A DNA stretch of 64,000 nucleotides from a virus, in IMG/VR virus record IMGVR_UViG_3300025141_010453, positions 1 to 64,000 of that record; one strand, given 5' to 3'. The notes under the pieces were generated by a model. It did not search any database and was not told where the DNA came from. It worked only from the letters and a program-made list of their open reading frames with translations. Of the stretch, positions 7,215 to 61,461 are shown in pieces. The first letter of the stretch is position 1; each line of letters starts with the position of its first letter. Both the position numbers and the translations under genes were made by a program.

Positions 7215-10200
7215 CTATATATCTTCAAAAGAAGCTCCTGTCGGTGTTATCAAGAATTCAACAAATATATATTCTAACGCTCTTGTAGGTTTAATATATA
7301 TTTTACCATTCATTTCATTTCTATCTATTTCTTCAGGGTCATTAGAAAGTACCACTCTAAAGTCCGTTAAACCTCTATCTCTTCTAATAGAATCTAATAT
7401 TGGATTTACTAGGTCTAAGAATTGTTGTCTTACTATATCATCATTTTGTTCAAATATTAATCTAACTGCTACTGCTGAAATTAATTTTCTAGTTTGTAAC
7501 AATAATCTTCTAACATTTATTCTATCTAATGCGGATTCTTTAATCTGTAATGTTTTATTACCCCAAATAATTGGGCCTACATCACTAAACGTTGCAATAG
7601 GATTAAGTCTACCAACATATAATGTATCTCTTTCGTCAAGAGTAAGTTTCTTTCTAGCTTTTACAGCATTTACAATACCTCTAGTATAACCCGCTGATGC
7701 AAACCATGGGAATGCAATATTATCTGTTAAGGCAATATTTCTCATTACCTCAGAAGTTGGTGGTATATAAATTTGTTTATTATTAGCCGTATCTCTTACC
7801 TGTATCCAAGGATAATAAGTAGCTGTATAATTAGAATCTATAAGAGAATCTTCTACATTATCTACAGCTTCCTCTGGTGTAATTTGATTAGTAATGTCTG
7901 TGGTGTTTGGTACAAACATATTATAATCTGGTGTGGTAACCACATATAAAGAATCTGCTCTATCAGTTTCTACCATATCTATAGCTTCATTAACCAAACC
8001 TAAATTATCTACATAATCAAGACCTGGAGTTGCAAATACATTAATATTTACAGATTCTGGATTACTGAATGTCTCAATAGCTCTTAGGTAAGCAAAATAA
8101 TCTGTGTTTGCTTCTGATGAACTTAATTTCTTAAATGTACCTGCTCCAGTTGCTGTATTGAACTCTGCCGTATTACATGCTCCCGCTAAGAATCCGGATA
8201 ATCCCATTCTATAATCGTCTGTATTGGACCTAGTTTTTCTATATATATCCCATCCGTCAAATCCACCATGTGGTGCAATCGTAAATTTACGACTTCTAAG
8301 TTTTTTATATGGTTCAGTAGTTAGGGTTGGTTCATGATTAAATTGTCCTGCTCCACAATCAAATACTGATTTACCATTTAATGTAGTTCCTGACCACTCT
8401 AAGTAAGTTCCAACACCACCACTTATAACAGTTGCTCCTGAATCCATATGGAATCCTTTTGTTATTACTTGCCATTCTCCTCCATCTACTGCTGTACATA
8501 AAGTAGACGGTATTTGTTTTCCTTTATAAGCGAAGAAATCTGAATCATAAGCTGCTCCCGTACTATTAGAAACACCGAGATATACTTTACTAACTTTATC
8601 TCCACCACTTATAGTTTGGTTATTTACAGTACCACTACCAAATGGTGGGTCGTAAATTACTTCACCAGCATTATAGTATTTTGTTTTATATACAATTGTT
8701 GGGTTAATTGGGCAATTACCATAACCTCTAAATCGATAACCTTCAAAACCACATGGTAATGAATTTGTAAATGTGCCATCTAAAAGTCCTTCACCTAAAT
8801 ACAACATTGTATATTTAGATTTTAATTCAAATTCACCTGTAGATGTACCAATTTTTCTACCAATAAAAGATACTTTAGTTGGGTCTAAACTACATCTAGT
8901 ATATTTTTCTAAGACATTTGGATTTGCGTCTGTGTCGTAGAAGTCTCTCACCACAATATCAAATTCTCCTCTTTCAAAAGATAGATTAATTAAAGAAATT
9001 TTAATTTCTTTATTTGCTGCTGTACCATCAGATATAGAAATAAATTTAAATAACCTAAACACATCCGTACCTTGTAATTCTGAAACAATCCATGGTGTCT
9101 CAGGTGTTGTCCACTGATTCATATACCAAGCTATAGTGTTTGTAGGTGTGGCATTTCTTGCTGATGGTAAATATTTTAAACAACATTGTAACCCTCTAAC
9201 TTTTCCTTTTTTCCAAGCGTCAGTTAATAATGCTGGATAAGCTTCTTCTACAAATAATGGAACTTCTTCTTTTACTTTATCAAATGGGCTTCTACCAAAT
9301 ACTCTAGAGACATACTCTTGTGATGTATTACTCATAGAAGTTTTAAATGTATAATTATTACCATTTACTGTTCCCGCACTTATACCAAATGACGCAAATG
9401 GATTTTCTAATACTTTATAATAATCACCAGTACAATCAAAACTAACAGTATCTGCACTTATACTATAAATTGGTCCACCAGAAGCCTTAGTACTAAGTCC
9501 TCTAGACCTTAAAGTTAATACTACCATACCATCATACTCTTCTTGTACATTAACATCTGTGTAAGTTATATATTCTATAACCACATTACCTGAATATACG
9601 GGAACTGCTCCCCATGTACCTGCACTAGTAGTTCCTGTTGCTTCTATATATGTTTGTGATTGTCCCACAGAATCACCAGATATATACATTTGGTAGGATA
9701 CTCCACTATATGTTCCTCCTGAACAACATGAACTATTCACATAATCAAATAATCCATAATACCAAGAATCATTTTCATATGAATTATAATCTGTACAATT
9801 GGTTGATAATATATTACTTACTGTTACACATGAAGTAGATGAAGATAATGTTTGTTGAGTTGTTGCAGTTGCTGTATTTGTCATAGCGGATGGTATACAT
9901 CCGTATTGATACACAATTGGTATTGGCCAAGCAGTAATACCTGAAAGAGCACCAGGTGCGTCTGTACCACCGGTAAAGCAAGACATTCCGTCCGAGTTAA
10001 GTACATCTAAACTACTAGAAAAGAAATTCATGAACGAATCTCTTAACGTTGGTAGTGTGGTTCCATTAGTTAAAGTTACGATTTCTCCATAACTAGTATC
10101 TGTACTACTTGTTTGCCAATGATTTAATATTGCTGCTGGTAGTGTAGTAAAGAAATCTGTAGTTCCTATTTCACTGACCCATGCATCTGTTCCTACAGTA

Positions 10201-10649
10201 GTACTAGTACCAGTTAAAGGTAATACGAAAGGCAACACTCCAGACGTTCCACTTGTAACTGCTGAAGTTACCCCAGTAGAACTATTAAAGTGTGTTGCGT
10301 CTATTTCTCCAATTGTTAATACTGACCATGATGGTCCTGCATCATACCCACTTATACCTAATACTCTAGTTACAAATAACTGATTTGATTGACTCAGATA
10401 AGATTTTGCTATATATCCTAATTCATATTTAGGAATTTGTGAATCCACATAAGTTTGTGGAGAGGTTCCCCCAAATCTAGTTGTAAAATCATCATATGAT
10501 TGTATGTATATAGGTTCAAAAGCTGGCCCTTTTAAAGCTTCACCAACTAAACCTAATGTAGTAACACCTACACTTTGTGCTACAAATGTTAAATCTTTCT
10601 CTGAAGTATATACTCCTGGAGAAACGAATACTTTATTACCGTCTGCCAT
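7215..10649 (-). CDS. gp18: Tail sheath protein (T4 gp18-like) with large S/T/G/C-rich insertions
   Basis: FVSPGVYTSEKD N-terminus; PWFASAG..RG, WGNKTL, LDRINVRRLL, IKPTRALEYI C-terminal motifs. Confidence 0.92.
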   Translation of the reverse strand: MADGNKVFVSPGVYTSEKDLTFVAQSVGVTTLGLVGEALKGPAFEPIYIQSYDDFTTRFGGTSPQTYVDSQIPKYELGYIAKSYLSQSNQLFVTRVLGISGYDAGPSWSVLTIGEIDATHFNSSTGVTSAVTSGTSGVLPFVLPLTGTSTTVGTDAWVSEIGTTDFFTTLPAAILNHWQTSSTDTSYGEIVTLTNGTTLPTLRDSFMNFFSSSLDVLNSDGMSCFTGGTDAPGALSGITAWPIPIVYQYGCIPSAMTNTATATTQQTLSSSTSCVTVSNILSTNCTDYNSYENDSWYYGLFDYVNSSCCSGGTYSGVSYQMYISGDSVGQSQTYIEATGTTSAGTWGAVPVYSGNVVIEYITYTDVNVQEEYDGMVVLTLRSRGLSTKASGGPIYSISADTVSFDCTGDYYKVLENPFASFGISAGTVNGNNYTFKTSMSNTSQEYVSRVFGRSPFDKVKEEVPLFVEEAYPALLTDAWKKGKVRGLQCCLKYLPSARNATPTNTIAWYMNQWTTPETPWIVSELQGTDVFRLFKFISISDGTAANKEIKISLINLSFERGEFDIVVRDFYDTDANPNVLEKYTRCSLDPTKVSFIGRKIGTSTGEFELKSKYTMLYLGEGLLDGTFTNSLPCGFEGYRFRGYGNCPINPTIVYKTKYYNAGEVIYDPPFGSGTVNNQTISGGDKVSKVYLGVSNSTGAAYDSDFFAYKGKQIPSTLCTAVDGGEWQVITKGFHMDSGATVISGGVGTYLEWSGTTLNGKSVFDCGAGQFNHEPTLTTEPYKKLRSRKFTIAPHGGFDGWDIYRKTRSNTDDYRMGLSGFLAGACNTAEFNTATGAGTFKKLSSSEANTDYFAYLRAIETFSNPESVNINVFATPGLDYVDNLGLVNEAIDMVETDRADSLYVVTTPDYNMFVPNTTDITNQITPEEAVDNVEDSLIDSNYTATYYPWIQVRDTANNKQIYIPPTSEVMRNIALTDNIAFPWFASAGYTRGIVNAVKARKKLTLDERDTLYVGRLNPIATFSDVGPIIWGNKTLQIKESALDRINVRRLLLQTRKLISAVAVRLIFEQNDDIVRQQFLDLVNPILDSIRRDRGLTDFRVVLSNDPEEIDRNEMNGKIYIKPTRALEYIFVEFLITPTGASFEDI

Positions 10650-16215: not shown

Positions 16216-17286
16216 ATGGCATTTTTTACCCGAGTAGATTATAGTAGACAATTAAGACAAAGTGGAGATACTACTGGTATTTTTTCTGGCTCTTCTACAT
16301 TTGAACAAAATGTAACGATTGGTTCAGGATTAACTGTTGGTAACGGTATTACTGGTTGTGGTGATTTTATGGTCTATAAATGTAAGGCTGAGGGACCATG
16401 GGAAGAGATGCAAGGTGGTTGTTGTTATACTGCATGTAGTACTGGTTATACTTTTATGGTTGCCCCTTATTCTGCAACCTCTGCGTCATGTATGGTAACC
16501 ATAACACCATTTTCTGCAATAACAGGTTATAGTGCAGTTCTTGCGATTGGTCAGGCCCCAATCCCTCCGTTAAGTGGAACAAATAGTGCTTTATCTATTA
16601 ATCCAGGAATTAGTGCGAGTACAGTACAAATAGCTAAATTAGGCCTTGTAGATGCTGGTTTAGTAGGCGGTGTGGTTGATTTGCAAATAGATGAAAATGG
16701 TAATGTAGTAAAAGGAGCTTCTTCTTCCTTAAGATATAAACATCACTTAAGACCAATAAATAAAAATAGATATGATACATTATTAGACCTTAAATCTTAC
16801 TTTTTTAAATATAGAGCAACCGGAATGGACGGTTTTGGCTTAATTGCTGAAGAATTACATGACTTAGGTTTTACTGAATTGGTCCTATATGACGGTAAAG
16901 GTAGGCCCGATAATATTGATTATAAACTTTTAGGGGTTGCTTTATTAAATCTTATACAAAATTTATATAAAGATGGTGTTAATTTATATTATGAACCTAC
17001 TAGTGAAACCGATACCAAAACAAAAGTTATAAAAGAAGACTATATTTCGGATGGTGAACATTTATTAGTAGTAACTAAAGAATGTAAAATAACATTGAAT
17101 TCAAATAAAGATAAAAAAATAAAAATAAAATCTTTATCTAATATAGAAATATTTCCAGATATTGGATTAATAGATAGTAAGTGGGAGTCTCTAAAATTAG
17201 ATGGTGATAGTTGTGTTGAATTTGCATTTGTAGAGGAGCTAGACTGTTGGGTGATTGTTGGTTCAGATGGTCTAAAGCAAAGTTAA
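16216..17286 (+). CDS. Short fibre/spike protein with peptidase S74 intramolecular chaperone plus an extra C-terminal domain
   Basis: SSLRYK cleavage motif, GFGLIAEEL, IDY. Confidence 0.65.
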   Translation: MAFFTRVDYSRQLRQSGDTTGIFSGSSTFEQNVTIGSGLTVGNGITGCGDFMVYKCKAEGPWEEMQGGCCYTACSTGYTFMVAPYSATSASCMVTITPFSAITGYSAVLAIGQAPIPPLSGTNSALSINPGISASTVQIAKLGLVDAGLVGGVVDLQIDENGNVVKGASSSLRYKHHLRPINKNRYDTLLDLKSYFFKYRATGMDGFGLIAEELHDLGFTELVLYDGKGRPDNIDYKLLGVALLNLIQNLYKDGVNLYYEPTSETDTKTKVIKEDYISDGEHLLVVTKECKITLNSNKDKKIKIKSLSNIEIFPDIGLIDSKWESLKLDGDSCVEFAFVEELDCWVIVGSDGLKQS

Positions 17287-20478: not shown

Positions 20479-22968
20479 CTAGTTATGACTACATCCTGTA
20501 CAACAGTCATCACAATTATTTGCTCCACCAGCAAATACGGTTAAATTATTAACACCTCCGGTAGCACCAAAAAACGGTACGTATGAACTTGGTGCGAGTG
20601 TCTGCACCCCAACATATTCATAACATGAATATAAAACTGACCCATTATTTTGCGTTACAGCTCTTTGAACTACTGTTCCTATAGGTGGTGAACCTATAAG
20701 TTGGTAGTAATCTGCTGATGCTGCCTCAGTACTGGGAAAACTATCACTTAGTATAGTAACTGGGTACCCAGCAAGTATATATCCTGGTACAGGGTTGGGG
20801 CCTTGACAGGCTTTATAGACATGTATGGTAACTGAATTGGTAACAACTGGTTCACTTGAACCGTTATAGCCACAATCAGTACAACCTTTATTACAATTTT
20901 TACATTCTTCACAATCAATTAAGCTATATCTGTCTTTATTGATTAAGAAATTATGATAAATTTCATCTGGGGTTAATGGTTTTATATAATACATCATTTG
21001 TGAAATACCTCCAACAAACGTACCAGCAAAAAATTGATTTAACATCATTTGGTCGGGCGGTAAATTCTTATGGGTCATCGTACCTCCACTACAATCTGGC
21101 ATTAAATTTTCTCTAAGTCCGAATGTTCCTCCACCCCAAGACATATTATATGCAACACCAACTTGTGTTTGTTTATTGGTATTTAATTGTCTAGGTATTA
21201 TTTCTTCATAGTTTTCTACTTTATGAACTCTTCTTCCATTAACATAAAAACTTAAAGTACCTAGTCTATATTCTTTTTCTTCAAACCAACTTTGTATTTG
21301 TGCTCCATGACAGTTAAAATCAAAATAAGCGTCTTCTATAAATCTTGGGTATTCATCTTTACATGGTTTAGTTTCTGGTGTTGGGTTAACTGGGTCACAC
21401 CCAAATGGCCCGGCAGTACTCGCTGCATGGCTACCATATCTTTCAAACTTATCAGTTCTAATTTTAACTAAATCATTAACACCACCATTATTATATATTT
21501 CACAATCTTCCAAATAAAGATTTCTATCAAATACAATATCTATCTGAACCCATATTTCCTTACAATTTCCGCTTTGTGTTATAAATTTACAAATAGGTTC
21601 AGAATAACTTTCTTCAATTACATAATCACAATTAAATGTTTTACCTGTATTACAAGTTTCACCAGTGGTCACACACTCTCCGGTATATCTAATCGTTCTA
21701 TACCCTATTCTCATATCATCAGTAAGTCTAACACCTAAAGCGTTACTATAGACATCATATCTACAATCAGGAGATTTATTTTGTTGTGCTAGGGGAACTG
21801 CTTTTTCTTCTGTATTACAACATCCTGTAATTCCAGTTAGTGTAGTGCACCCGGACCCTGTTAAATCCAACACTAGGCCAGACCAAAAACTAGAAGCACT
21901 ATAGAGTGAACTAGCAAAATATTTATCCTCTGCCCTTACACCTTTATAAAAGAAAAATCCTGAGGTACTTGAAGTAATGGGATAATCCATACCAGTTCCA
22001 TTATACGAACTATAATTTAATGTGTGTATTGGTTGGTCATTCATTGCAGAACCTAAAGGGCTACAGAAAGTGGTAGCACTTCCGAAATTTATAGAACTTG
22101 CAGTAGTGGCACTATATATTCTATTCCATCCACTAGCATTATAACAACTCCCATAATAACCACAAATTACACTATTATCTCCAACTGCTGTACAACACTT
22201 ATCCTCTACTTTACATATACTATCACTTATTGTAGTTAGTTTTAAATAAGTTTCAAAACTCCATCCTTTATTTGGTCGTGTAGGTAATACTTCATATGGG
22301 TAACCATATAATTTATAAAATCCTTGGTAAAATCCACCTTTTAGTTCTTGGTAATACCCTGATGCGTCAGATGCATTAAGAATACTGGTATCCGTATACC
22401 ATTCGTTGATGGCTCCCGTAGTAGGGAATCCAAATGCTTTTACTTGGTGCATTTTAAACCTTTTATCATAAGATGATTTATCAAACTGATTCCAGTAAGG
22501 TGAGTCAGTAGGTATGTCACACCATAACTCTATGCACGCACCAGAGGCAACATCTTGTTCAGTAAATAAACCATTATCGGTTGCTGTCCATGCAGCGTCA
22601 CAAACCTCATAATACCCAGGAGAAACATCATAAGGACAATCACAACAAGACTTTGCTTTAGACCAACTATTCTTACTTAAAACCATAAATGATGTATACC
22701 CCGTATTAGAGTTATAATCTGAGGTATTTCCTGTTGGGTACTGAAATGCACATGTTGTGGTAGGTTGTGTAGAACAGTCTGTATCAGCAAGGTCAATCCA
22801 TACTGGAAGTATGTCACCATTATTATAAGCAGTAATACCAGTCGACCAAACTACATCCGTATTAAAGTCTTTTTCGTCAGACGCTAAAAATAAATCATAA
22901 TATTCACTATAATTAATTTTACTATCTAATCTATTGAAATAAAAATTATTTAAATTTTGTGTTCCCAT
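20479..22968 (-). CDS. Cys/Ser/Thr/Gly-rich virion protein, possible LamG/ConA-like fold
   Basis: Late promoter; LSFYVNG and FVGGISQMMYYIKPLT.DEI.HNF pattern; about 39 Cys by hand count. Confidence 0.5.
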   Translation of the reverse strand: MGTQNLNNFYFNRLDSKINYSEYYDLFLASDEKDFNTDVVWSTGITAYNNGDILPVWIDLADTDCSTQPTTTCAFQYPTGNTSDYNSNTGYTSFMVLSKNSWSKAKSCCDCPYDVSPGYYEVCDAAWTATDNGLFTEQDVASGACIELWCDIPTDSPYWNQFDKSSYDKRFKMHQVKAFGFPTTGAINEWYTDTSILNASDASGYYQELKGGFYQGFYKLYGYPYEVLPTRPNKGWSFETYLKLTTISDSICKVEDKCCTAVGDNSVICGYYGSCYNASGWNRIYSATTASSINFGSATTFCSPLGSAMNDQPIHTLNYSSYNGTGMDYPITSSTSGFFFYKGVRAEDKYFASSLYSASSFWSGLVLDLTGSGCTTLTGITGCCNTEEKAVPLAQQNKSPDCRYDVYSNALGVRLTDDMRIGYRTIRYTGECVTTGETCNTGKTFNCDYVIEESYSEPICKFITQSGNCKEIWVQIDIVFDRNLYLEDCEIYNNGGVNDLVKIRTDKFERYGSHAASTAGPFGCDPVNPTPETKPCKDEYPRFIEDAYFDFNCHGAQIQSWFEEKEYRLGTLSFYVNGRRVHKVENYEEIIPRQLNTNKQTQVGVAYNMSWGGGTFGLRENLMPDCSGGTMTHKNLPPDQMMLNQFFAGTFVGGISQMMYYIKPLTPDEIYHNFLINKDRYSLIDCEECKNCNKGCTDCGYNGSSEPVVTNSVTIHVYKACQGPNPVPGYILAGYPVTILSDSFPSTEAASADYYQLIGSPPIGTVVQRAVTQNNGSVLYSCYEYVGVQTLAPSSYVPFFGATGGVNNLTVFAGGANNCDDCCTGCSHN

Positions 22969-24665: not shown

Positions 24666-24671
24666 TTAAAA

Positions 24672-25073: not shown

Positions 25074-25076
25074 AAA

Positions 25077-25742: not shown

Positions 25743-25744
25743 AC

Positions 25745-30416: not shown

Positions 30417-30419
30417 TAT

Positions 30420-32032: not shown

Positions 32033-32034
32033 AA

Positions 32035-34726: not shown

Positions 34727-34728
34727 AA

Positions 34729-37130: not shown

Positions 37131-37160
37131 TGATATAAAATTAAATAAACAAAATAAAAA

Positions 37161-42215: not shown

Positions 42216-42217
42216 TT

Positions 42218-42586: not shown

Positions 42587-42591
42587 TCTTT

Positions 42592-43994: not shown

Positions 43995-43996
43995 TT

Positions 43997-44722: not shown

Positions 44723-45620
44723 TTTAACTGGTAATCTAGGAAATCATATGTGGCAATATGCTGTATGTCGAACTATTGCAGAAAAGCTAGAGTATGACTG
44801 GGGAATAAATCCTATTCCTAGTCATGATTATTTCAACGGTAGTAACCAAATGGCATTTATGGATGTAGATTTTGGTAAAGAAATTAATGGTATAGTTAAT
44901 GAATATCATGAGCCCTGGAAAACTTTAAATCATATAGATATGGTAAATATAACAATGTTAAACCCTACATTATATGAAATAACAGATAATACTATTATGT
45001 TAGGGGATAATGGAGCTAAGGGAGGTATATACCAATCTGAAGATTACGTCTTAGATAGGAAAGACGATATTAAAAAATGGTTTACTATTAATTCTACCCA
45101 TAAAACTAAATATGATGAGAAATTAAAGGAATTAGGCGTGACTTTAGATGATAATACCTGTATTATTAATTTTAGAGGAGGAGAATACCGAGGTATCCCT
45201 AATGTGCTACTTAGAAGAGAGTATTGGAGGGACTCTATAAATCATATGATTGGGTTAAACCCTAATATGAAATTTTTGGTTATTACTGATGACCCTACTA
45301 CGGCTTCACAATTCATGCCTTTTGAAATTAGGTGTATTCATGTGGATGTAGGTTTTGATTATTATTGTGTTAATCAAGCAAAATGGTTAATTATCTCTAA
45401 CTCTACTTTTGGTTGGTGGTGTGCTTGGTTAAACGAGGGATGTATAAAAATTATAGCTCCTAAGTATTGGGCGAGACATAATATTAGTGATGGTTATTGG
45501 GCAACAGGTGACGCTTACACCTCATGTTTTAAGTATATGGATAGAGAAGGTAATTTATCTGATTTTGAGACATGTAAATCCGAAGCATTAAATTATTATA
45601 AATTAAAAAATATTATTTAA
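44709..45620 (+). CDS. GT11 alpha-1,2-fucosyltransferase-like
   Basis: GNLGNHMWQYA, FRGGEY, ISNSTFGWW.AWL. Confidence 0.85.
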   Translation: MITTNLTGNLGNHMWQYAVCRTIAEKLEYDWGINPIPSHDYFNGSNQMAFMDVDFGKEINGIVNEYHEPWKTLNHIDMVNITMLNPTLYEITDNTIMLGDNGAKGGIYQSEDYVLDRKDDIKKWFTINSTHKTKYDEKLKELGVTLDDNTCIINFRGGEYRGIPNVLLRREYWRDSINHMIGLNPNMKFLVITDDPTTASQFMPFEIRCIHVDVGFDYYCVNQAKWLIISNSTFGWWCAWLNEGCIKIIAPKYWARHNISDGYWATGDAYTSCFKYMDREGNLSDFETCKSEALNYYKLKNII

Positions 45621-45621
45621 C

Positions 45622-46485
45622 ATGGGAAAAATATACGATTGTTTTAACTTCTTTAATGAACTAGACCTTTTAGAAATGAGATTAAATATTCTATATGATT
45701 ATGTAGATTATTTCGTGATAGTAGAGTCTACAGTGACCCACTCGGGACAACCTAAACCTTTTTATTTAGAAGAAAATAAAGAAAGATTTGCTAAATTTGC
45801 AGACAAAATTATAAGTTACAAAGTAAGTGACACACCTAATGATTTTATGAATTTACCTAATACAGGATTTTTTGATTCTGAATTAGATAAAATCCAGGGA
45901 TATATTCGTACACAAACCAATAGATTTAATAGGGCTACTCAGATAGATTACGGTAGAGATTTCTTCCAAAAAGAATCAGTTAGAAGAGCATTAGTAAATT
46001 GTGATGATAACGATATCATTATTATTTCAGATGCTGATGAAATTCCTAACCCAGAAATACTAAAAGAACTAGATACTCTTGCCTTAGAAAACACTATATA
46101 TTCTTTAGAACAACCAATGTATTATTATTATTTAAATGTGTTAAAAGATAACAACTGGTGTGGTTCCAAATTAGGATTATATAAAAATATAAAAAAATTA
46201 TCTTTCAATGAAATTAGAGGAGATGAATCATTAACAACCAAACTAGTTAATGGTGGGTGGCATTTTAGTTTTATGGGTGGTGAAGAGATGGTAAGAACAA
46301 AAATAACTTCTTATTCTGCAAGAGATTTAGCAAATGAACATGTATTAGCAAATATTAAAACAAATATAGAGAATGACCAAGACGTATTTTTTAGAGGTGC
46401 ATTAACAAAAGTAGATATAGATGAGAGCTATCCTACACACATTCTAAATAACTTAGACAAGTATAGTAAAATGATTAAAAAATAA
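45622..46485 (+). CDS. GT17-like glycosyltransferase
   Basis: DCF.FFNELDLLE.RL, FVIVES..T.SG..K, SDADEIP, GWHFSF. Confidence 0.85.
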   Translation: MGKIYDCFNFFNELDLLEMRLNILYDYVDYFVIVESTVTHSGQPKPFYLEENKERFAKFADKIISYKVSDTPNDFMNLPNTGFFDSELDKIQGYIRTQTNRFNRATQIDYGRDFFQKESVRRALVNCDDNDIIIISDADEIPNPEILKELDTLALENTIYSLEQPMYYYYLNVLKDNNWCGSKLGLYKNIKKLSFNEIRGDESLTTKLVNGGWHFSFMGGEEMVRTKITSYSARDLANEHVLANIKTNIENDQDVFFRGALTKVDIDESYPTHILNNLDKYSKMIKK

Positions 46486-46491
46486 AATATT

Positions 46492-47274
46492 GTGATAATT
46501 TCTAAAATACTAGGAGGCCTAGGGAACCAAATGTTTCAATATGCATACGCTAGAAATCTATCAATAGTAAATGGTACTAATTTCTATTTAGATACCACAT
46601 TTTATAATAACCAAACAGGGGTCACACCTAGAGAATTTACTTTATCTAAATTTCCTAATATTACTATGAACTTAGATATCCCCCAATCTTTACCTTCTTT
46701 AACAACAATAACAGATAATTTTATATATGACCCAAATAATATCCCCACAGAAAATTCTTTACTAAGTGGGTATTGGCAAAGCGAGAAATACTTTAAACCA
46801 TCTAAAGATGTTATAATTCAGGATTTTTCACTAGATTCTATAACACACAAAAAATTAACCACAAAATACCCAAAAATTAATGGTAATAATATATCATTAC
46901 ATATTAGAAGAGGGGATTATCTACACCAAACTGATTTTCACCCAGTACAGAGTATAGATTACTATAAAAAAGCTTTAGATATATTAGGTGACTATGACAA
47001 TATTTTTGTGTTTTCGGATGATATACCGTGGTGTAAGGATAATCTTACTTTTAATAATATGGTATTTGTAGAAGGTAATGTAGATATTGAGGATTTGTGG
47101 TTGATGTCTTTATGTGAGAAAAATATAATCGTTAACTCCTCTTTCAGTTGGTGGGGTGCTTACTTAAATACTTCTGAAAATAAGATGGTGGTCACGCCTA
47201 GTCAATGGTTTGGTCCTCGTGCTGGTTTAAGCGCGAATGATATCATACCGGATGAATGGCATAAAATTAATTAA
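46492..47274 (+). CDS. GT11 alpha-1,2-fucosyltransferase-like
   Basis: GGLGNQMFQYA, GYWQSEKYF, HIRRGDY, FSDD, NSSFSWWGAYL. Confidence 0.9.
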   Translation: MIISKILGGLGNQMFQYAYARNLSIVNGTNFYLDTTFYNNQTGVTPREFTLSKFPNITMNLDIPQSLPSLTTITDNFIYDPNNIPTENSLLSGYWQSEKYFKPSKDVIIQDFSLDSITHKKLTTKYPKINGNNISLHIRRGDYLHQTDFHPVQSIDYYKKALDILGDYDNIFVFSDDIPWCKDNLTFNNMVFVEGNVDIEDLWLMSLCEKNIIVNSSFSWWGAYLNTSENKMVVTPSQWFGPRAGLSANDIIPDEWHKIN

Positions 47275-47285
47275 AAAAATAAATT

Positions 47286-47531
47286 ATGAATTTTAAAAAA
47301 CTTAAAGAACTAACTATACAATACCCAAATAATCAAGAATTGGCTGAGGTAATAAGAAATATGGTACGAGATGAAGAAGAAACTGTACTTAATACAGATT
47401 CTCCTTATATTTACGAAAGGAATCCTGATACTGGAGAAATTTTTAGAAGAAAGTGTGGTGATTATGATTCCCCTAGGGAGTGTATCAATCCAGAAATAAA
47501 CTCAGTACCATATATAAAATATGAAAAATAA
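47286..47531 (+). CDS. Hypothetical protein
   Basis: 81-aa operonic ORF. Confidence 0.55.
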   Translation: MNFKKLKELTIQYPNNQELAEVIRNMVRDEEETVLNTDSPYIYERNPDTGEIFRRKCGDYDSPRECINPEINSVPYIKYEK

Positions 47532-48522
47532 AAGAATTATAGTACTAGGTGCGGGTGGTTTTATCGGGGGCCACCTATGTAATAAATTACAAAAAGAAGG
47601 CCATTGGGTTAGAGGTGTAGACATTAAAAGACATGAGTACTTTGATAAAGTAGGTGATGAATTTATTTTAGGTGACTTAACTGACCCTAAAGTTGTGGAG
47701 TTGGTAATCGAAGAAAATATAGATGAGGTATATCAGTTGGCAGCAGATATGGGGGGTGCTGGTTATATTTTTACTGGAGAAAATGATGCAAATGTTATGC
47801 ATAATTCTGCTTTAATAAATTTAAATGTGGCTTATGAGAGTGTGAAAAAGAGTGTTGGGAAGGTGTTCTACTCTTCTTCAGCGTGTATATACCCAGAATA
47901 TAACCAACTAGACCCAACTAACCCTAACTGTAGTGAAGATTCGGCTTATCCAGCTAATCCTGATTCTGAGTACGGCTGGGAGAAGTTATTTAGTGAAAGA
48001 CTGTACCTCTCTTTTATGAGAAATCATGGTTTAAATATTAGAATAGCCAGATTCCATAATATATTTGGGCCACAAGGTGCATGGACCAATGGGAAAGAAA
48101 AAGCCCCTGCAGCAATGTGTAGAAAAGTTTCTGACGCTCAAGAAGGAGACAGTATAGAAGTGTGGGGTGATGGTTTACAAACACGTTCTTTTCTTTATAT
48201 AGATGAATGTCTGGAAGCAGTGGATAGACTTATGAGGTCAGACTTTAGTGAACCTGTTAATATTGGTTCTGAAGAAATGATAAATATAAATGACTTTGCT
48301 CAATTGGTTATTAATATGTCTGGTAAAAATCTATCAATAAACAATATTTACGGACAAGAATTCATTAATAAGTATGGATTTGCGTGCCCACAAGGAGTAA
48401 GAGGTAGAAATTCTGACAACACATTTTATTACGAAAAAATTGGGTGGCGCGTATCTAGACCTTTAAATGAAGGAATGGAACAAACATACAAGTGGATTAA
48501 TTCTGTAAATAAAAAAGTTTAA
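47521..48522 (+). CDS. GDP-mannose 3,5-epimerase-like SDR
   Basis: GAGGFIG, LAADMGG.GYI, SSAC.YP, YGWEK, EKAPAAMCRK, WGDG.QTRSF. Confidence 0.85.
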   Translation: MKNKRIIVLGAGGFIGGHLCNKLQKEGHWVRGVDIKRHEYFDKVGDEFILGDLTDPKVVELVIEENIDEVYQLAADMGGAGYIFTGENDANVMHNSALINLNVAYESVKKSVGKVFYSSSACIYPEYNQLDPTNPNCSEDSAYPANPDSEYGWEKLFSERLYLSFMRNHGLNIRIARFHNIFGPQGAWTNGKEKAPAAMCRKVSDAQEGDSIEVWGDGLQTRSFLYIDECLEAVDRLMRSDFSEPVNIGSEEMININDFAQLVINMSGKNLSINNIYGQEFINKYGFACPQGVRGRNSDNTFYYEKIGWRVSRPLNEGMEQTYKWINSVNKKV

Positions 48523-50124: not shown

Positions 50125-51192
50125 ATGGAGACGGAAAAACAATTATCCCAGTTAAAAGCTGGATTAAATAAAATGGAAAATAAAGAAGCTAAAATTTATT
50201 TTTTAACTCAAGATACTGAAGGTCGTGCAATTGCTTCAGTAAATTTAAATTATCAATATGTAAAATATCTAAATGAAGCGGGCTACAACGCTTATATTCT
50301 TTATGAGAAAAAAGATTATAAGGGTGTTGGTGACTGGTTATCTAACGAATATGTTAATTTACCTCATGCAAATATAGAGGATGGTGAATTAAAAGTTGGG
50401 CCACAAGATTTTGTGGTGATACCTGAACTATATAGTCATGTATTGGAACAGATAAAGGATATGCCTTGTTCTAAAATAATCCTATGTCAAGCATATGATT
50501 ATATTTTAGAAACTTTACCTCCGGGGTTTGGGTGGATTAATTATGGGATTAGAAAATGTATTACTACTACAGAATCACAAAAAGAATATATTAAAAACCT
50601 ATTTCCCAATATAGAAACTACTATAATACAGCCTTCTTTCCCGGACTATTTTAAGCCCACAAAAAAACCTAAAAATCCAATGGTTGCTATACATACTAGA
50701 GACCCTAGAAACACTATGAAAATAATTAAAGAATTTTATATAAAAAATCCACAATTTAAATGGATTACATTCCGAGATATGAGAAATATGAGTAGAGAAG
50801 AATTTGCTAAAATATTGAGTGAATCATGTGTGTCTGTTTGGGTAGATAGAATTAGTGGTTTTGGAACATTCCCTATGGAATCTATGTTATGTAAAACACC
50901 TGTAATCGGGTCCCTCCCAATACTAAAGCCTGATTGGTTAACTCAAGATAATGGGTTATGGACAATGGATGAATCTAAACTAGTTGAAGTTTTGGGTAAC
51001 TATATTAAAACTTGGTTGGAGGGAAGTGTTCCCGTTGAGTTATACGCTAAGATGGAAGAAACGGTTAGTGTATTTTCTGAAGATAAGGAACGTGATTCAT
51101 TAGTTTCTTACTTTAAAACTTTATTTGATGAAAAAACACAGGAATTTAAAAATTCCATAAATAAACTAACACCTGTTGGTGCAAACGCTTAA
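50125..51192 (+). CDS. Glycosyltransferase (GT-B-like)
   Basis: D.VVIPE, GFGTFPMESM. Confidence 0.65.
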   Translation: METEKQLSQLKAGLNKMENKEAKIYFLTQDTEGRAIASVNLNYQYVKYLNEAGYNAYILYEKKDYKGVGDWLSNEYVNLPHANIEDGELKVGPQDFVVIPELYSHVLEQIKDMPCSKIILCQAYDYILETLPPGFGWINYGIRKCITTTESQKEYIKNLFPNIETTIIQPSFPDYFKPTKKPKNPMVAIHTRDPRNTMKIIKEFYIKNPQFKWITFRDMRNMSREEFAKILSESCVSVWVDRISGFGTFPMESMLCKTPVIGSLPILKPDWLTQDNGLWTMDESKLVEVLGNYIKTWLEGSVPVELYAKMEETVSVFSEDKERDSLVSYFKTLFDEKTQEFKNSINKLTPVGANA

Positions 51193-51196
51193 AATT

Positions 51197-51994
51197 ATGA
51201 ATAATACAGATATAACAGTTATATTACCTATACATGATGTGTCCGGTAAATTTAATGAATGGTTTCCTAAAGCCATTAAAAGTTTAGAACAATCTCAAGT
51301 AAAGCCCGGTAACTTACTATTAATATGTGCTGAGAATAAAGATAATAAAAATTTTATGGAATCTTGGGTCGCTCCTGAGGGCATTTCTACTAAAATTTTA
51401 TATAATGATGGTGAAAGTGATTATTGTAGCCAAATTAATTTTGGTGTTACCAATACTGAAACAGAATTTTTCTCTATATTAGAATATGATGATGAATATT
51501 CTAATATTTGGTTTAAACAATTTAATGAGTATGTTGCCTACTATGATGAGGTGGATTTATTTTTTCCTTTAGTAGTAGATACAGATGAGAATGGTCAATT
51601 TATTGGTTTTACCAATGAAGCGTTATGGGCTATGGGTTTTTCTGAAGATTTGGGTTATTTAGATAATAATACTTTATTAAAGTATCAAAATTTTCAAGTT
51701 AGTGGAATGATTATGAGAAAAAGTAAATTCGAGGAAGTTGGTGCCCTAAAACCATCTGTGAAATTAACTTTTAATTACGAGTTTTTACTTCGTGCTACTT
51801 ATAACGATACTATTATTATGACCATACCAAAAGTTGGCTATAAACATACCAATCAAAGAACTAATTCTTTATTCTGGGAATACAAATTTAATAAAGATAA
51901 ACAGTTAAGTCCCGACGAAGCTAAATTCTGGGTTGATTTGGCAAAGAAAGAATACTTTTTTACTACCGATAGAAAAGTACAATATGATGGATAA
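51197..51994 (+). CDS. Glycosyltransferase family 2-like
   Basis: ITVILP, N.GV, ILEYDD, EFLLR; start reassigned to 51197. Confidence 0.7.
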   Translation: MNNTDITVILPIHDVSGKFNEWFPKAIKSLEQSQVKPGNLLLICAENKDNKNFMESWVAPEGISTKILYNDGESDYCSQINFGVTNTETEFFSILEYDDEYSNIWFKQFNEYVAYYDEVDLFFPLVVDTDENGQFIGFTNEALWAMGFSEDLGYLDNNTLLKYQNFQVSGMIMRKSKFEEVGALKPSVKLTFNYEFLLRATYNDTIIMTIPKVGYKHTNQRTNSLFWEYKFNKDKQLSPDEAKFWVDLAKKEYFFTTDRKVQYDG

Positions 51995-52698
51995 TGGGCC
52001 GAAAACCATTAAATAAACAATATTTTGGTCCTCCACAAGAAGAAGCTGTAAGAGTATTTTTAACTGCAACTACGTGGGACGAAAAAAATACTGTTTACAA
52101 TACCTTTTTACGTGACCCCCTAACAAAAATGATTGATAGTATCATTAGACGTTACCGCTTGTATCGACCAAATATGGAGTTTCGAGAGATGCATGTAGAT
52201 ACCTTATCATTTTTAGTAACTAAAATGGAAAAATTTAAACCCGCTAAAGGTAAAAAAGCTTATTCGTACTTTGGTACCATCTGTAAAAACTATCTTATGG
52301 GTCAGATTATGAAAGACAATAGAGATAGAAATAGAAAAATCTCTTATGAAGATATATCTCATCATCTCGAACAACGTGAAGATATGAGTTATACTATGTT
52401 CAATGATGATGAGTTACCATTAGAGGGAATAATTATTAAACTTGTGTCTGAAATAAAAGGATTTATTTCTAATAATAGATTAAGTATTAACGAAGAAAAG
52501 GTTGGGTACTGTTTAATCGATGTGTTTGATAATTATAAAACTATCTTTATAGCGGGAAAAGGTAATAAATTTAATAAGAATATCATTTTATACCAATTAC
52601 GTGAAATGAGTGGTCTCACTACTAAAGAGATTAGGTCCGCTTTAAAACCTTATAAAAACATTTATCAAGATATTCTAGTTTCTCTAGTAAATAAGTAA
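51994..52698 (+). CDS. Phage late-transcription sigma factor (T4 gp55-like)
   Basis: KFKPAKGKKAYSYFGTICKNYL resembles the gp55 region-2 segment FD.EK..NPFAYFT.I. Confidence 0.65.
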   Translation: MGRKPLNKQYFGPPQEEAVRVFLTATTWDEKNTVYNTFLRDPLTKMIDSIIRRYRLYRPNMEFREMHVDTLSFLVTKMEKFKPAKGKKAYSYFGTICKNYLMGQIMKDNRDRNRKISYEDISHHLEQREDMSYTMFNDDELPLEGIIIKLVSEIKGFISNNRLSINEEKVGYCLIDVFDNYKTIFIAGKGNKFNKNIILYQLREMSGLTTKEIRSALKPYKNIYQDILVSLVNK

Positions 52699-57221: not shown

Positions 57222-58712
57222 ATGATACATAGGTCGTACTTTGCTAAAAATAATACATTAATTGCTAATAACACAGTAAATACCGCTAAAAATCCTGTTA
57301 CCCAATTATTTTATGGTAAAAATGTTACAAAAAAATGTAGATTTACTGGATTATCTGCACATACGTGTGATGGACTTACTGGTTTTACAATGAATAATGA
57401 TACTGGTTTTAGTCGCTTTATTTTTGAGCTAGGCCTAGATGACTTAATAGAAAAATATACTTCATGTTGTATTCCTAATGTTAATGTATTAAGTCATACG
57501 TTAAAAATGACAAATACCTCTAATTTTGATGATACCTTAATGAATGATAAAATTTTAGTAGATGATACTAGACGTGCTACTTCATTTACACTTATGTTAT
57601 TTAAAGCCGTTAGTGGTACTTCGTGGGATGAAGGTGTTGGTTATGATTATCTGGTACCTGATGGTATATTTGCACCTGAATTTGATTTGACTTATTCTCA
57701 AAGACCAAGTAATTGGTTTTCTGCGACTACTCTTGCTTCTTGGCCTATTCCTGGTACTTATTTAAACACTAATACAGCGTCTTTTCAAGTTTTAGCAACC
57801 CAAAATTTTGATAATGGTAATGAAAATATATCTTTTAATAGTTTATGGTTAGATGCTGAAATTAATGGTATAATCACTACCCCAGCCAGTTCTGCTGATA
57901 CTACCTATGGAATTGCGTTTATTCCAGCTTTTGAGAATCTTAGTGGGTTAACTGAAGCTTATTCTGTTGGATTCTTTACACGCTATACTCAAACATTTTT
58001 TGAGCCTTTCTTAGAAACTACATACAATGATGTTATTGATGATGATAGAAGTAATTTTAATCTTGGTACTCCTAACAACTTATTTTTATATGCTTATGAC
58101 CATAATGGAACACCAATTTGTTTTGATTCCCTACCTACTGTTACAATTGAGGATTGTAATGGTAATACAGTTGGTACTTATACTGCCTCTCAGTTAACTT
58201 GTGGTGTATATTATATAAACTTAACTATATCATCATTACCACAAACTGCTCCAGTATATTATAGTGATATATGGTCAAATCTTTCTATTAGTGGTGTACC
58301 ACAGCCTAATATAACAAATGAATTTATAATTTATGACAATGCATTTAGTATTGGTTCCACCGCTGGTGAACCAAAAGTTTATGGTTATTCCGTATCAGGT
58401 ATTAAAGAAGATGAAAAATTAACTAATGGAGAAACTAGAAAAATATTCATATCTACTAGAGTTCCTTATACAGTAGAACAACAAGTTTTAGTCGATAATT
58501 TGCAATATAGATTATATGTAACCCAAGGTACCACTCAAGTTGAGGTGATTCCTTGGACCTCAGTTAATAGGTCATTTACACACAATTATTTCCTATTAGA
58601 CACCGGATGGATGATACCAAATGAATATTACCTAGATATAAAAGCTACTTCTAATCAACAGGTAGATATTTATAGAAAACAAATAAAATTTCAAGTAATT
58701 AATCAATTATGA
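57222..58712 (+). CDS. Putative virion structural protein (beta-rich)
   Basis: Late promoter; WDEG.G.DY and SNW..W..PG motifs; S/T-rich. Confidence 0.55.
   Translation: MIHRSYFAKNNTLIANNTVNTAKNPVTQLFYGKNVTKKCRFTGLSAHTCDGLTGFTMNNDTGFSRFIFELGLDDLIEKYTSCCIPNVNVLSHTLKMTNTSNFDDTLMNDKILVDDTRRATSFTLMLFKAVSGTSWDEGVGYDYLVPDGIFAPEFDLTYSQRPSNWFSATTLASWPIPGTYLNTNTASFQVLATQNFDNGNENISFNSLWLDAEINGIITTPASSADTTYGIAFIPAFENLSGLTEAYSVGFFTRYTQTFFEPFLETTYNDVIDDDRSNFNLGTPNNLFLYAYDHNGTPICFDSLPTVTIEDCNGNTVGTYTASQLTCGVYYINLTISSLPQTAPVYYSDIWSNLSISGVPQPNITNEFIIYDNAFSIGSTAGEPKVYGYSVSGIKEDEKLTNGETRKIFISTRVPYTVEQQVLVDNLQYRLYVTQGTTQVEVIPWTSVNRSFTHNYFLLDTGWMIPNEYYLDIKATSNQQVDIYRKQIKFQVINQL
58667..58674 (+). promoter_or_regulatory. 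Putative late promoter TATTTATA inside the upstream gene
   Basis: GATATTTATAG context, 34 nt upstream of ATG 58709. Confidence 0.45.
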
Positions 58713-59218
58713 AAAAAATAAGAATAACAGAAAGTGAATTAGTGGACTTAATAGAAAAACTAGTTAAAGAAAATATTGGTAATGGTACAGGTTTTAATTT
58801 TGGTATGTTAGGGACCCCAACCTCAAAATATAAAGAATTAGAAGAAACTGAAGCCCATGGAGAGTTTAACACCAAAAATGGAGAAGAAGAAGGTGAAGAA
58901 GAAGTAGAAGAAGAATTTAATTATGACACATCACAAACTGGTGATAAAACAGTAGACCTTAATGTGATGAAACAAACTAATCAATCAGATTGGATGGGGG
59001 AAAGTATTACAGAATCTCAATTAATTAAAAGACTTAAAAAAAGATTAATTAAAGAAGAAGGTAAGGGTTGTGCAAAGTCAGAAGGTGGAGATGGTTGTAT
59101 AGATAAAGATGGAAAAGGTTGGTTTATTTGGAATAACAAAAAAGGTGGTATATTTAAAAGATGTTCAAGTGAAAAAGATTGTGAAGAAATTTTAAGTGTT
59201 CCCGCAGTACATGGTTAA
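58709..59218 (+). CDS. Acidic putative internal head protein; paralog of 5805..6320
   Basis: MKKIRITESELVDLIEKLVKENIG..NFGMLGTPTSKYKE. Confidence 0.6.
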   Translation: MKKIRITESELVDLIEKLVKENIGNGTGFNFGMLGTPTSKYKELEETEAHGEFNTKNGEEEGEEEVEEEFNYDTSQTGDKTVDLNVMKQTNQSDWMGESITESQLIKRLKKRLIKEEGKGCAKSEGGDGCIDKDGKGWFIWNNKKGGIFKRCSSEKDCEEILSVPAVHG

Positions 59219-59652: not shown

Positions 59653-61461
59653 CTAGAATCTTTTCAATTCTCTTACATTAAATGTTCTAACACCATCAAT
59701 AGTGATTTTTCCATAGAACCTATTGTTCACCATTTTCTTAGCGTATCTAGTCATGATACCTTTGATTGGTGTAAAGTTGAATGGATTATACATTGTTGGA
59801 GTTAACTGTAACGGTACATATGGTGCGTAAACGTATCCAGTATCCAATAAAGATGTTCCTTTATGACCAATTAACACTTGGTTAGCTGGGAAATAAGGGT
59901 CTCTATATACAGTAAATCTACCTGATAATGTTCCTATTTTCTCAATACCCATATTGTACTGGTCTTGGTCTGGCGATGCGTTTGAAACGTGGAAATATTC
60001 CAAGTCATCAAAAATCGCAGAAACTTCTGAAGAACATACAATCCAGTTAGCACCTCCTCTCAATGTAGATTTGTGAATCTGAGCTGATAACTGATTAACC
60101 GCAGTAATCAATGTTTGATTCCAATCTTTTTGAGTATATGGAGCTTGACCTGCTGTGAAACGTTTCCATCCATTATAATCCCATCTTAAAGTCCATGCTG
60201 CACCTTTTCTAAGGTCTCTCAAGATTTCTCTATCGATTTCAGCTGCAACTTCCTCTGATAATAAAGCTGTTAATTCAGCTTCAGCATCAATGTTGTGGAA
60301 TGCAGAAACGTCTTGTGCAAGTTCTGGTGACCACTGAGCTCTTAATTTTCTTTCAGTAACAGAAACTGTAACAGCCTGTAAGTCAAAAGAAACTTCACCC
60401 ATTTGGTCTTCAAATTCAAGAGTTGCATATTGTCTCCAAGTTGCTGTAACTGCTTGTGTAGCTGCTGTAGAACCTACATATCCGTCAATTGAACGGTAAC
60501 TTGTTTCTCCACAATCAATACATGCTGGACATGAAGTATCAACCTCTAGATAGATATTTCCTTGTGAGTCACATACATCTGTTCTGTCTACAATACCAAA
60601 ACCATATTTTTGTGTAACAACACGGAATAACATTGCGTCACCCACATTATAAAGTCTAGTACCTCCACTTAAAGCGTCGGCAGAATCGTTACAACAGTAG
60701 ATACCAGCTGTATTTGTTAAAGTTAATGAAGCTAAAAACTCTTCACTATCTTGTTCATTTCCATCAGGGCCAGTTAATTTACCTACACCCGCGTTATAAA
60801 ATCCAGCTAATTTTACTATTACACTTCTTGACCCTCCATTTGGTATAATACCAATTGTTTCAGAACAAGAAGATAATGCATTTAAAGCGTCGTAATCATT
60901 TAACTGATTTCCGCCCCAAACTACATTTGTAGTTGATGCTGCACTTGATGTCCAACTACCTTTTGAGTAGTCATAAAGACCGTCAGTAGCTTCTAGTGGT
61001 GCGTTACCAGCATAAAACTCATCATATAATGACATAGTAGCTGCTGATGTTGATGCTCCTGGTGTTGTAGGTACATTATTACCTGCTGGTGCTCCATAAG
61101 GTGCGTAATGTGTTCCACCTGGTTGTGCTCCAATTTTAGGTACAAAGTAGAACAATTTACCAATTGGTAAGTTCATAGCTTGTACAGAAACGATATCGTT
61201 TGCCAATAATTTAGAGAATACTCTCCTAATAATTGGGAAAACAACTGTTTCGAACGAACCTGAATCAGTCGCGCTTGTAGCCTCGTTGATTAGGTTTGTT
61301 GCTTGATTTTCATATAGTTGAGCTATATTTTCTTTAACATGTCCTTTAAGACCGTCAAGAAAACCAAGACTATTCCATTTGTTTAAGGTATCTTCTTTGA
61401 TAACTTTAAGGTGTTTTAACCCAATGTTACCAACCATACCTGATTCTAATAGTGCTCCCAT
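59653..61461 (-). CDS. gp23: Major capsid protein (T4 gp23-like)
   Basis: IRRVF..LLANDIVSVQ.M..P.G, RKLRAQWSPELAQD, DAEAEL, YAPYVPL, GIMTRY. Confidence 0.95.
   Translation of the reverse strand: MGALLESGMVGNIGLKHLKVIKEDTLNKWNSLGFLDGLKGHVKENIAQLYENQATNLINEATSATDSGSFETVVFPIIRRVFSKLLANDIVSVQAMNLPIGKLFYFVPKIGAQPGGTHYAPYGAPAGNNVPTTPGASTSAATMSLYDEFYAGNAPLEATDGLYDYSKGSWTSSAASTTNVVWGGNQLNDYDALNALSSCSETIGIIPNGGSRSVIVKLAGFYNAGVGKLTGPDGNEQDSEEFLASLTLTNTAGIYCCNDSADALSGGTRLYNVGDAMLFRVVTQKYGFGIVDRTDVCDSQGNIYLEVDTSCPACIDCGETSYRSIDGYVGSTAATQAVTATWRQYATLEFEDQMGEVSFDLQAVTVSVTERKLRAQWSPELAQDVSAFHNIDAEAELTALLSEEVAAEIDREILRDLRKGAAWTLRWDYNGWKRFTAGQAPYTQKDWNQTLITAVNQLSAQIHKSTLRGGANWIVCSSEVSAIFDDLEYFHVSNASPDQDQYNMGIEKIGTLSGRFTVYRDPYFPANQVLIGHKGTSLLDTGYVYAPYVPLQLTPTMYNPFNFTPIKGIMTRYAKKMVNNRFYGKITIDGVRTFNVRELKRF

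Follow-up and report, generated by a model that had tools for sequence, protein, structure and literature searches.

An order-specific Ser/Thr tetrapeptide in late peripheral proteins of a marine giant phage clade and its possible link to a phage-encoded glycan island

The first 64,000 nucleotides of the IMG/VR virus record IMGVR_UViG_3300025141_010453, hereafter the window, encode structural proteins of a T4-like giant phage together with a 26-kb island of glycosyltransferase-like and nucleotide-sugar genes. In this phage and its relatives, we found an excess of one tetrapeptide, [ST][GA]x[ST], that is real, order-specific, conserved across the clade, and confined to late peripheral proteins. 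The best single reading of the data, which we put forward tentatively and at somewhat less than an even chance, is O-glycosylation of the virion at this word. More fully stated, a marine giant phage clade would run a cytoplasmic, sequon-directed protein O-glycosylation with a swappable 20-kb cassette, giving its particles a serotype-like coat—a proposal that we likewise hold as plausible but far from secure.

The tetrapeptide and its sharpened form

The initial annotation of the window had listed numerous instances of [ST][GA]x[ST] in predicted exposed virion proteins, all of which are present in the sequences. Expected counts were obtained by shuffling residues inside blocks of 15, 30, or 60 residues, with p values quoted from the 30-residue blocks. 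The motif proved enriched in four proteins: the tail sheath protein beginning at 7215 (18 sites observed against 7.3 expected, p 0.0005), the fibre at 16216 (10 against 1.6, p < 0.0005), and the open reading frames (ORFs) at 20479 (13 against 4.4, p < 0.0005) and 57222 (8 against 2.1, p 0.0005). Across the three block sizes, the expected counts for these four were about 7.5, 2, 4.5, and 2.2, respectively, with all p values at or below 0.002. The enrichment thus persists under the shuffling proposed alongside the annotation, but does not extend to the remaining 101 ORFs of the 94-kb contig, which hold 48 sites against 43.8 expected (z 0.7). No enrichment was seen by the same test in the portal, polymerase, helicase, or capsid protein, nor in ORF 55393 (4 sites against 1.8); the hand counts of two sites in PolB and none in the helicase were correct.

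Besides the contig itself (G000), we analyzed five related fragments (G001–G005), the six together amounting to about 660 kb of partly overlapping regions, each 28–48% complete. The post hoc choice of the word is controlled, because an unbiased scan covering every word of three or four positions built from ten residue classes (349 words) placed [ST][GA].[ST] first in the four enriched proteins (49 against 15.3, z 9.4). The same word also ranked first in the unselected proteomes of G000, G001, G003, and G005 (z 5.8–10.9). Composition alone is ruled out by the block shuffles and by mirrored and permuted versions of the word, which are 2.6–3 times rarer. Many synonymous codons are used at the motif sites, ruling out a DNA-level cause, and BLAST recovered neither internal repeats nor a domain common to the four enriched proteins.

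To dissect the word, we compared 312 unselected ORFs of four clade fragments with 385 ORFs of T4, LR756508, and phi92. In the clade pool, [ST][GA].T occurred 449 times against 178 expected (2.5-fold, z 24), as opposed to 144 against 131 in the three control phages, whereas [ST][GA].S stood at 184 against 159 in the clade and 164 against 150 in the controls; Thr is strongly preferred at position 4. Position 2 takes Gly and Ala nearly alike (1.95- and 1.77-fold in the unselected pool, 3.3- and 2.8-fold in the enriched proteins), with no enrichment for Asn, Asp, or Ser in the unselected clade pool, or for Pro, Val, or Thr, which were examined in the enriched proteins only. Placing Asn, Asp, or Gln at either hydroxyl position left no excess in the unselected pool, and neither did Val or Ile in the enriched proteins. 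Upstream, position −1 is hydrophobic at 58% of 460 sites against a background of 35% and charged at 3% against 16%; Lys is depleted from position −2 through +6, and position +4 is often hydrophobic. The sharpened word is, accordingly, hydrophobic-[S/T]-[G/A]-x-Thr.

Ala does not take the positive-phi position of a Gly turn, and Asn and Asp are equally good turn residues. Judged from these known propensities, a generic beta-turn explains the word poorly, because Gly and Ala serve equally and Asn and Asp are not enriched. The word looks instead like a modification sequon because it is order-specific, accepts Gly and Ala alike, needs both hydroxyls, and changes position at constant density within the hypervariable, presumably exposed sheath domain, a combination for which neither composition nor a generic turn readily accounts. 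The need for both hydroxyls and the strong preference for Thr at position 4 could also mark a different modification, such as phosphorylation or an ester or isopeptide cross-link, or else recognition by a chaperone or protease, or binding, with the acceptor of the glycan island lying elsewhere; the motif-rich proteins are also Cys-rich, which would suit such a role. We regard this explanation as very improbable, given that the window revealed neither a kinase nor an enzyme for cross-linking and that the transferases form the only large conserved enzyme set acting on hydroxyl groups.

Outside the clade, T4 fibres, sheath, and Hoc show no [ST][GA]x[ST] excess, and neither does the phi92 proteome. 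At the ORF level, no ORF with z of at least 3.5 and at least six sites was found in T4, in Flavobacterium phage immuto, or in the 220 kb scanned of the 484-kb huge phage LR756508, and a single low-complexity ORF passed this threshold in Microcystis phage Mel-JY01. The motif as a generic feature of phage fibres or sheaths is therefore ruled out in T4, phi92, and the 220 kb of LR756508. Two of these outgroups have features of their own. The top word of immuto (NC_055915.1), a cultured, laboratory-tractable distant relative with two GT2 genes, is the different [ST][GA][ST], found 292 times against 173 expected proteome-wide (z 10) and concentrated in the annotated tail spike gp101 (56 against 22), the tail fibres gp047 and gp052, the sheath gp041, and gp056. 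The Escherichia coli phage phi92 (NC_023693.1) carries four adjacent glycosyltransferase genes, gp163–166 (two GT-B and two GT-A, one of the four annotated with a polypeptide GalNAc-transferase fold), and the cluster recurs in more than 100 Phapecoctavirus and Justusliebigvirus records.

Motif-rich proteins and their clade

The source record is 94,012 bp long, without a terminal repeat, and has a CheckV completeness of 28%, implying a genome of roughly 330 kb. It is part of a T4-like giant phage of about that size whose clade is abundant in marine metagenomes and uncultured, because the sheath has 218 relatives in IMG/VR (52–82% identity across the full length) and the conserved transferase 25745 more than 7,400 marine homologues, many from Tara Oceans. 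Its capsid protein and sheath are distant homologues of gp23 and gp18, and their nearest named relatives are those of immuto and Mel-JY01, at about 36–43% identity over parts of the proteins (tblastn). Two of the clade fragments, G002 and G003, are syntenic with the contig along its entire extent. By described gene content, the clade is possibly related to the moraphages, an aquatic giant phage lineage of up to 307 kb with predicted Bacteroidota hosts; the paper on that lineage describes T4-like structural modules, a core including a dUTPase and a sigma factor, a flavobacterial-type DnaK in some members, and four core orthologous groups annotated as glycosyltransferases, for which it only lists possible transferase roles (PMC12619734).

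The sheath gene (7215–10649, minus strand) was assigned by tblastn to annotated sheaths and by Phage_sheath_1 and Phage_sheath_1C matches at the C-terminus of its 1144-residue product, which carries an insertion of about 700 residues. Segments inserted between the N- and C-terminal parts of the T4 gp18 core are directed to the outside, and by analogy the insertion here would be so as well. The motif excess is held by the hypervariable part of this insertion, residues 110–440 (9330–10322, minus strand): across 53 distinct orthologues, this part has a mean of 13.8 sites against 4.8 expected, and the remaining protein 3.4 against 3.1. The alignment consensus is mostly undefined here. Among the 105 alignment columns with a site, 81 hold it in fewer than 20% of the sequences and only four in at least 80%; the positions thus appear to turn over while the density stays, although alignment error in this part may overstate the turnover. 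The AlphaFold2 model of the sheath is mediocre (mean predicted local distance difference test score, pLDDT, 58.6; only weak sheath matches by Foldseek), and it places site clusters at residues 128–134, 225–240, and 326–337 in low-confidence loops.

The other three enriched proteins keep the excess in relatives. The gene at 16216–17286 (plus strand) encodes a short fibre of the neck or tail, with residues 170–224 forming a Peptidase_S74 chaperone domain (PF13884, 22.9 bits against a cut-off of 22), and it weakly matches the tail protein family phrog_1330. All ten of its sites fall at residues 16–136, ahead of the S74 domain, and would lie in the part remaining after the predicted self-cleavage; its orthologues in G002 and G003 hold 10 sites against 1.5 and 6 against 1.7. 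The ORF at 20479–22968 (minus strand) encodes 829 residues, 39 of them Cys (4.7%), and has no match in Pfam, PHROG, or PDB, with 14 against 3.4 and 10 against 3.1 sites in the same two relatives. Its cysteines often stand as CC or C-x-x-C beside motif sites; such richness in Cys is seldom met in proteins synthesized in the bacterial cytoplasm. The third, of 496 residues (57222–58712, plus strand), lies in a block of large late genes adjoining the head genes; Pfam, PHROG, and PDB give it no family and its Atlas neighbours are viral hypotheticals, while its orthologues hold 8 against 1.9 and 7 against 1.9 sites. Several giant ORFs elsewhere in the relatives are also motif-rich (z 5–9) and yielded nothing usable from Pfam, PHROGs, PDB sequence search, or Atlas.

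A putative late motif, TATTTATW, precedes all four enriched genes, 43 nucleotides (nt) before the sheath gene, 13 nt upstream of 20479, and 22 nt upstream of 57222 among them, and it also stands ahead of the portal, neck, and other head and tail genes. Two further observations concern proteins of other kinds. Giant ORFs at 57409–68664 and 79828–88503 of G004, which belongs to the subclade with 52% sheath identity, are mucin-like and built on [ST]-P-[ST] repeats (690 against 203 in that fragment), representing a different low-complexity, Ser/Thr-rich type of surface protein. Three otherwise unrelated ORFs, at 5805–6320 (minus) and 58709–59218 (plus) in the window and at 89617–90000 (minus) of the contig, have in common an N-terminal segment of 48–69 residues at 57–67% identity.

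The glycan island: conserved flanks and a swapped core

Pfam, PHROG, NCBIfam, and PDB searches recovered about 10–12 glycosyltransferase-like genes in the island, together with deoxy-amino-sugar and heptose-type pathways, in keeping with the dozen or so transferases and the nucleotide-sugar pathways first annotated. The left flank consists, in order, of a GT4-like glycosyltransferase (25745–26983, plus strand like the other island genes given here with coordinates; phrog_7162 and a GT4 fold), a DUF4494-like ORF, a dUTPase-like gene (27250–27858; PF00692, E 6e-24) that always lies between the two left-flank transferases, and a GT-A glycosyltransferase of the Glyco_tranf_2_5 family with a C-terminal extension of about 150 residues (27860–28957; PF13712, E 2e-29). 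The right flank comprises PhoH, an NT5C-like gene, a GT-B-like glycosyltransferase (50125–51192) that matches the Actinobacillus glucoside-glucosyltransferase 8xsg in PDB over residues 41–335 (E 1e-8), a GT2-like (GT-A) glycosyltransferase (51176–51994) whose G002 and G003 orthologues match PF00535 at 22.6 and 29.1 bits, and, at the right-hand end, a gp55-like late sigma factor (51994–52698; phrog_234, E 4.5e-4) that is 82–83% identical in relatives.

Between these flanks lies a 19.6-kb interior (28951–48522), annotated by Pfam. Its first part encodes two GT2 enzymes, a 4,6-dehydratase/epimerase, a DegT aminotransferase, an RmlD-like reductase, and a B12-radical-SAM enzyme, and its last part DUF5672 and DUF3431 proteins, two GT11-like and one GT17-like enzymes, and a second epimerase. 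In between, a self-contained heptose-type nucleotide-sugar pathway (37161–42586; Pfam, NCBIfam) comprises a cupin, a nucleotidyltransferase–kinase fusion, a GmhA-like SIS isomerase, a split transketolase, a shikimate-dehydrogenase-like protein, and a HAD phosphatase, its logic being read by analogy with the known GmhA/HddA/GmhB/HddC route. The shikimate-dehydrogenase-like gene is truncated after the substrate-binding domain; together with the phage's own split transketolase, this suggests that the phage makes the seven-carbon precursor itself and that an unusual enzyme reduces the keto-sugar.

The four flanking transferases, singled out by the initial annotation as 25745, 27860, 50125, and 51197 (the ORF at 51176–51994), are all glycosyltransferase-like and all conserved in G002 and G003, at 76–79%, 53–63%, 67%, and 70–73% identity, respectively. 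The interior, as anticipated, is swapped: 28951–48522 has no positional orthologues in either relative, both of which instead carry a GDP-mannose dehydratase, DegT, GT2, GT10, GT25, and GT32-like enzymes, FkbM methylases, and an RfbT-like gene. Every contig that reaches the island position has the transferases, G004 and G005 ending before it, and no homologues of the four were found in the complete genomes of immuto, Mel-JY01, and T4. The homologues of 25745 lie on contigs of up to 294 kb, and some carry PF13439. The protein itself has no Pfam hit, and a PDB profile search from its alignment gave none either. Its AlphaFold2 model (pLDDT 89.2) is a two-Rossmann GT-B of the retaining type, for which Foldseek returned MshA, GlgM, BshA, PglA, PimA, and SdgB (E 6e-15 to 1e-10), with MshA, BshA, PglA, and PimA among the best folds and the protein O-GlcNAc transferase SdgB at rank 28.

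None of the proteins encoded at 25.7–52.7 kb has a membrane segment, and the island contains no initiating phosphoglycosyl transferase, flippase, polymerase, ligase, or ABC exporter; the earlier remark that a Wzx/Wzy/ABC exporter and an undecaprenyl-phosphate initiating transferase are missing was therefore borne out. The incomplete fragments G000, G002, and G004 carry no ORF with at least three membrane-like segments, and those of G001, G003, and G005 lie outside the island, the ones scanned matching no Pfam family. An extra GT2 (with a Glyco_transf_7C-like part) and a DegT gene sit outside the island at 24636–26857 of G001 and near 138 kb of G003, among primase, PD-(D/E)XK nuclease, and phosphoesterase genes; nearby ORFs with three or four membrane-like segments match no Pfam family.

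Only two perfect (12/12) matches to the sigma70-type promoter TTGACA-N17-TATAAT occur in the 94 kb, both on the plus strand: one at 25711–25739, heading the first half of the island, and one at 37099–37127, heading the heptose-type pathway. Each follows a hairpin (GAAGAC...GTCTTC) within a 60-nt exact direct repeat located in 25668–25767 and 37056–37155, and G002 has an 11/12 copy at the same place, ahead of its 25745 orthologue. The late motif TATTTATW occurs in the island once only, at 44709. From these predicted promoters, the island is probably expressed early and the candidate substrates late, which is compatible with sugar pools being made first and is equally expected of a system directed at the host or at DNA. 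Perfect sigma70 consensus boxes are odd for a Bacteroidota host, where the main sigma factor recognizes others; the phylum proposed for the host via the moraphage paper may be wrong, or the phage may carry its own early specificity.

The surroundings of the island raise the prospect that glycosylation of the phage DNA is the task of the conserved transferases and perhaps of the island as a whole, the protein word being unrelated. The triad of GT4, dUTPase, and GT-A adjoins polB in syntenic order in over 40 contigs, even where polB identity falls to about 47%; PhoH and the NT5C-like nucleotidase stand at the right flank; the promoters predict early-class expression; and the further GT2 and DegT genes of G001 have primase and nuclease genes as neighbours. 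If the phage were in an arms race with restriction systems, its glycan cassette would be expected to diversify as well, and complex phage DNA glycans beyond the hydroxymethyl-cytosine glucosylation of T-even phages have been described (Pyle et al. 2024, as cited in PMC12619734). We nonetheless judge this improbable. PF00303, which would detect a thymidylate-synthase-like hydroxymethylase, gives nothing on G000–G005, a weak point as each record is less than 50% complete. The T4 alpha- and beta-glucosyltransferases are not listed among the top 50 PDB fold matches of 25745, the one transferase folded, whose matches are of the GT4 kind. We know of no DNA glycan that calls for at least ten transferases with heptose, amino-sugar, and fucosyl-type enzymes, and the motif excess would be left unexplained.

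Virion O-glycosylation weighed against known systems

Under virion O-glycosylation, the host RNA polymerase would read the island early from the two consensus sigma70 promoters, so that pools of nucleotide sugars—a heptose-type sugar, an amino-deoxy-hexose, and possibly a C-methylated sugar—would accumulate before the late proteins appear. Once these are present in the cytoplasm, a member of the conserved set of four soluble transferases, most likely the GT4-like 25745 or the GT-A 27860, would add the first sugar to a hydroxyl of the word. The strain-specific interior enzymes would then extend the glycan, which would differ between relatives much as a serotype does. We infer all three central elements: the word as acceptor, the identity of the priming enzyme, and the presence of the glycan on the virion. 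The conserved soluble transferases and the swappable core supply a plausible writer for a word with the properties of a sequon.

Several observations weigh against this proposal. The major capsid protein (gp23-like; 59653–61461, minus strand, assigned by tblastn to annotated capsid proteins) had been described as packed with the motif, but its 4 sites, all internal, do not exceed the 3.0 expected (p 0.35), and its G002 and G003 orthologues are similar (4 against 3.0 and 5 against 3.3); the neck protein 15078, also named as motif-bearing, has one site, which is not above chance. The two most conserved sheath sites, residues 398 and 424, fall at hairpin turns predicted within a folded beta domain, so that at least some sites are structural. 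None of the transferases is nearer to known protein O-glycosyltransferases than to other GT4 or GT2 enzymes, and the modelled fold of 25745 is a generic GT4 one, whose acceptors range over small molecules, lipids, and proteins. Early-type promoters stand at the head of the island, whose surroundings are genes of DNA metabolism (polB, dUTPase, PhoH, and the NT5C-like gene). As an independent replicate, phi92 fails, having the four-transferase cluster, including a homologue of 25745 (gp164, 27% identity), yet no motif excess; the link between transferases and motif is one of co-occurrence in a single clade, set against a few outgroups, and phylogeny confounds it. The O-glycosylation first proposed for the window thus retains the motif excess, the conserved transferases, the swapped interior, and the missing exporter on its side, and has the capsid and neck proteins, the early promoters, the generic transferase folds, and phi92 against it.

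The hydrophobic residues at −1 and +4, a further point on the negative side, fit a strand–turn–strand element as well as they fit a sequon. The word could accordingly be a structural preference (hydrophobic-S-G-x-T-hydrophobic) of fast-evolving, beta-rich surface domains, in line with the hairpin-turn positions predicted for residues 398 and 424, and the island could modify an envelope glycoconjugate of the host, the glycan being built on a host lipid carrier, exported by the host, and serving, for example, to block superinfection or keep progeny from sticking to debris. The early sigma70 promoters at its head would suit such a role. GT2, GT4, GT11, GT25, DegT, and dehydratase genes are usual in O-antigen and capsule loci, for which a variable core between conserved flanks is typical, and the peripheral GT2 and GT4 enzymes of these pathways are likewise without membrane spans. 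Even so, we consider this combination rather unlikely. No initiating transferase, flippase, polymerase, ligase, or exporter is present in the island or was recognized among those ORFs of the six fragments that have at least three membrane-like segments, and conservation of the four transferases at 53–79% identity across a clade with probably varied hosts argues for a phage-encoded acceptor. A generic turn, moreover, leaves unexplained both the equal use of Ala and Gly and the failure of Asn and Asp to stand in for Ser and Thr, and the tail proteins of T4, phi92, and LR756508 have no such excess.

Should virion O-glycosylation be correct, the word would give phages their first defined O-glycosylation sequon and would reveal a new kind of variation in the surfaces of ocean phages, one that may act as an unrecognized determinant of adsorption, host range, particle stickiness, and evasion of grazing or defence at sea. 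It would also give a function to the large "lipopolysaccharide-like" gene islands of many aquatic phages, and a compact sequon with a soluble enzyme set would be useful for glyco-engineering. The motif statistics offer a cheap, sequence-only marker for finding such systems, and even without a glycan, the clade-wide persistence of an order-specific word, at a density that stays constant in hypervariable domains, needs explaining.

Among known systems, O-antigen and capsule loci and the lipopolysaccharide islands of T4-like cyanophages have the same enzyme families and a variable cassette between conserved flanks; the island described here differs in having no initiating transferase, flippase, polymerase, or exporter, and all of its proteins are soluble. 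In the bacterial systems for cytoplasmic O-glycosylation of surface proteins, GtfA/B (serine-rich repeat adhesins), SdgA/B (Ser-Asp repeats, GT4), and the heptosyltransferases TibC/Aah (autotransporters), a soluble GT-B enzyme primes Ser or Thr within a short, repeated stretch of sequence and other soluble transferases extend the glycan. Points of likeness are the presence of SdgB among the folds matched by 25745 and of a heptose pathway in the island; 25745 is, however, as near to MshA, BshA, or PglA as to SdgB or nearer, Pfam detected no GT9-type heptosyltransferase, and the acceptor contexts of these bacterial systems are tandem repeats, whereas the word of the window is dispersed and non-periodic. 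The chlorovirus PBCV-1 and Mimivirus, whose own cytoplasmic enzymes glycosylate the capsid or fibrils, similarly combine soluble transferases with nucleotide-sugar pathways, work independently of the host secretory and lipid-carrier machinery, and have lineage-variable gene sets, but they are viruses of eukaryotes, and the PBCV-1 glycans are N-linked at atypical sites of the capsid protein.

To our knowledge, mycobacteriophages are the only phages whose particles have been shown to be glycosylated, with an effect on recognition by antibodies. The moraphages share the T4-like structure, the dUTPase, the sigma factor, and four glycosyltransferase groups with the clade studied here, and PMC12619734 describes neither a motif nor a swappable island. 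For virion O-glycosylation, the closest comparison is with the mycobacteriophages Che8, Corndog, and Myrna, in which the chemistry has been shown (Freeman et al. 2023, as cited in PMC12619734). There, the capsid and tail-tube subunits carry the glycans on extensions at their C-termini, whereas the candidate sites in the phage of the window, which lie in the sheath insertion, fibres, and other late proteins, consist of an internal four-residue word in which the capsid protein is not enriched; this phage further differs in its 26-kb island, its own nucleotide-sugar pathways, and its swappable core. In both, soluble transferases encoded by the phage outside the structural operon would act in the cytoplasm on the phage's own structural proteins, as they do in the mycobacteriophages.

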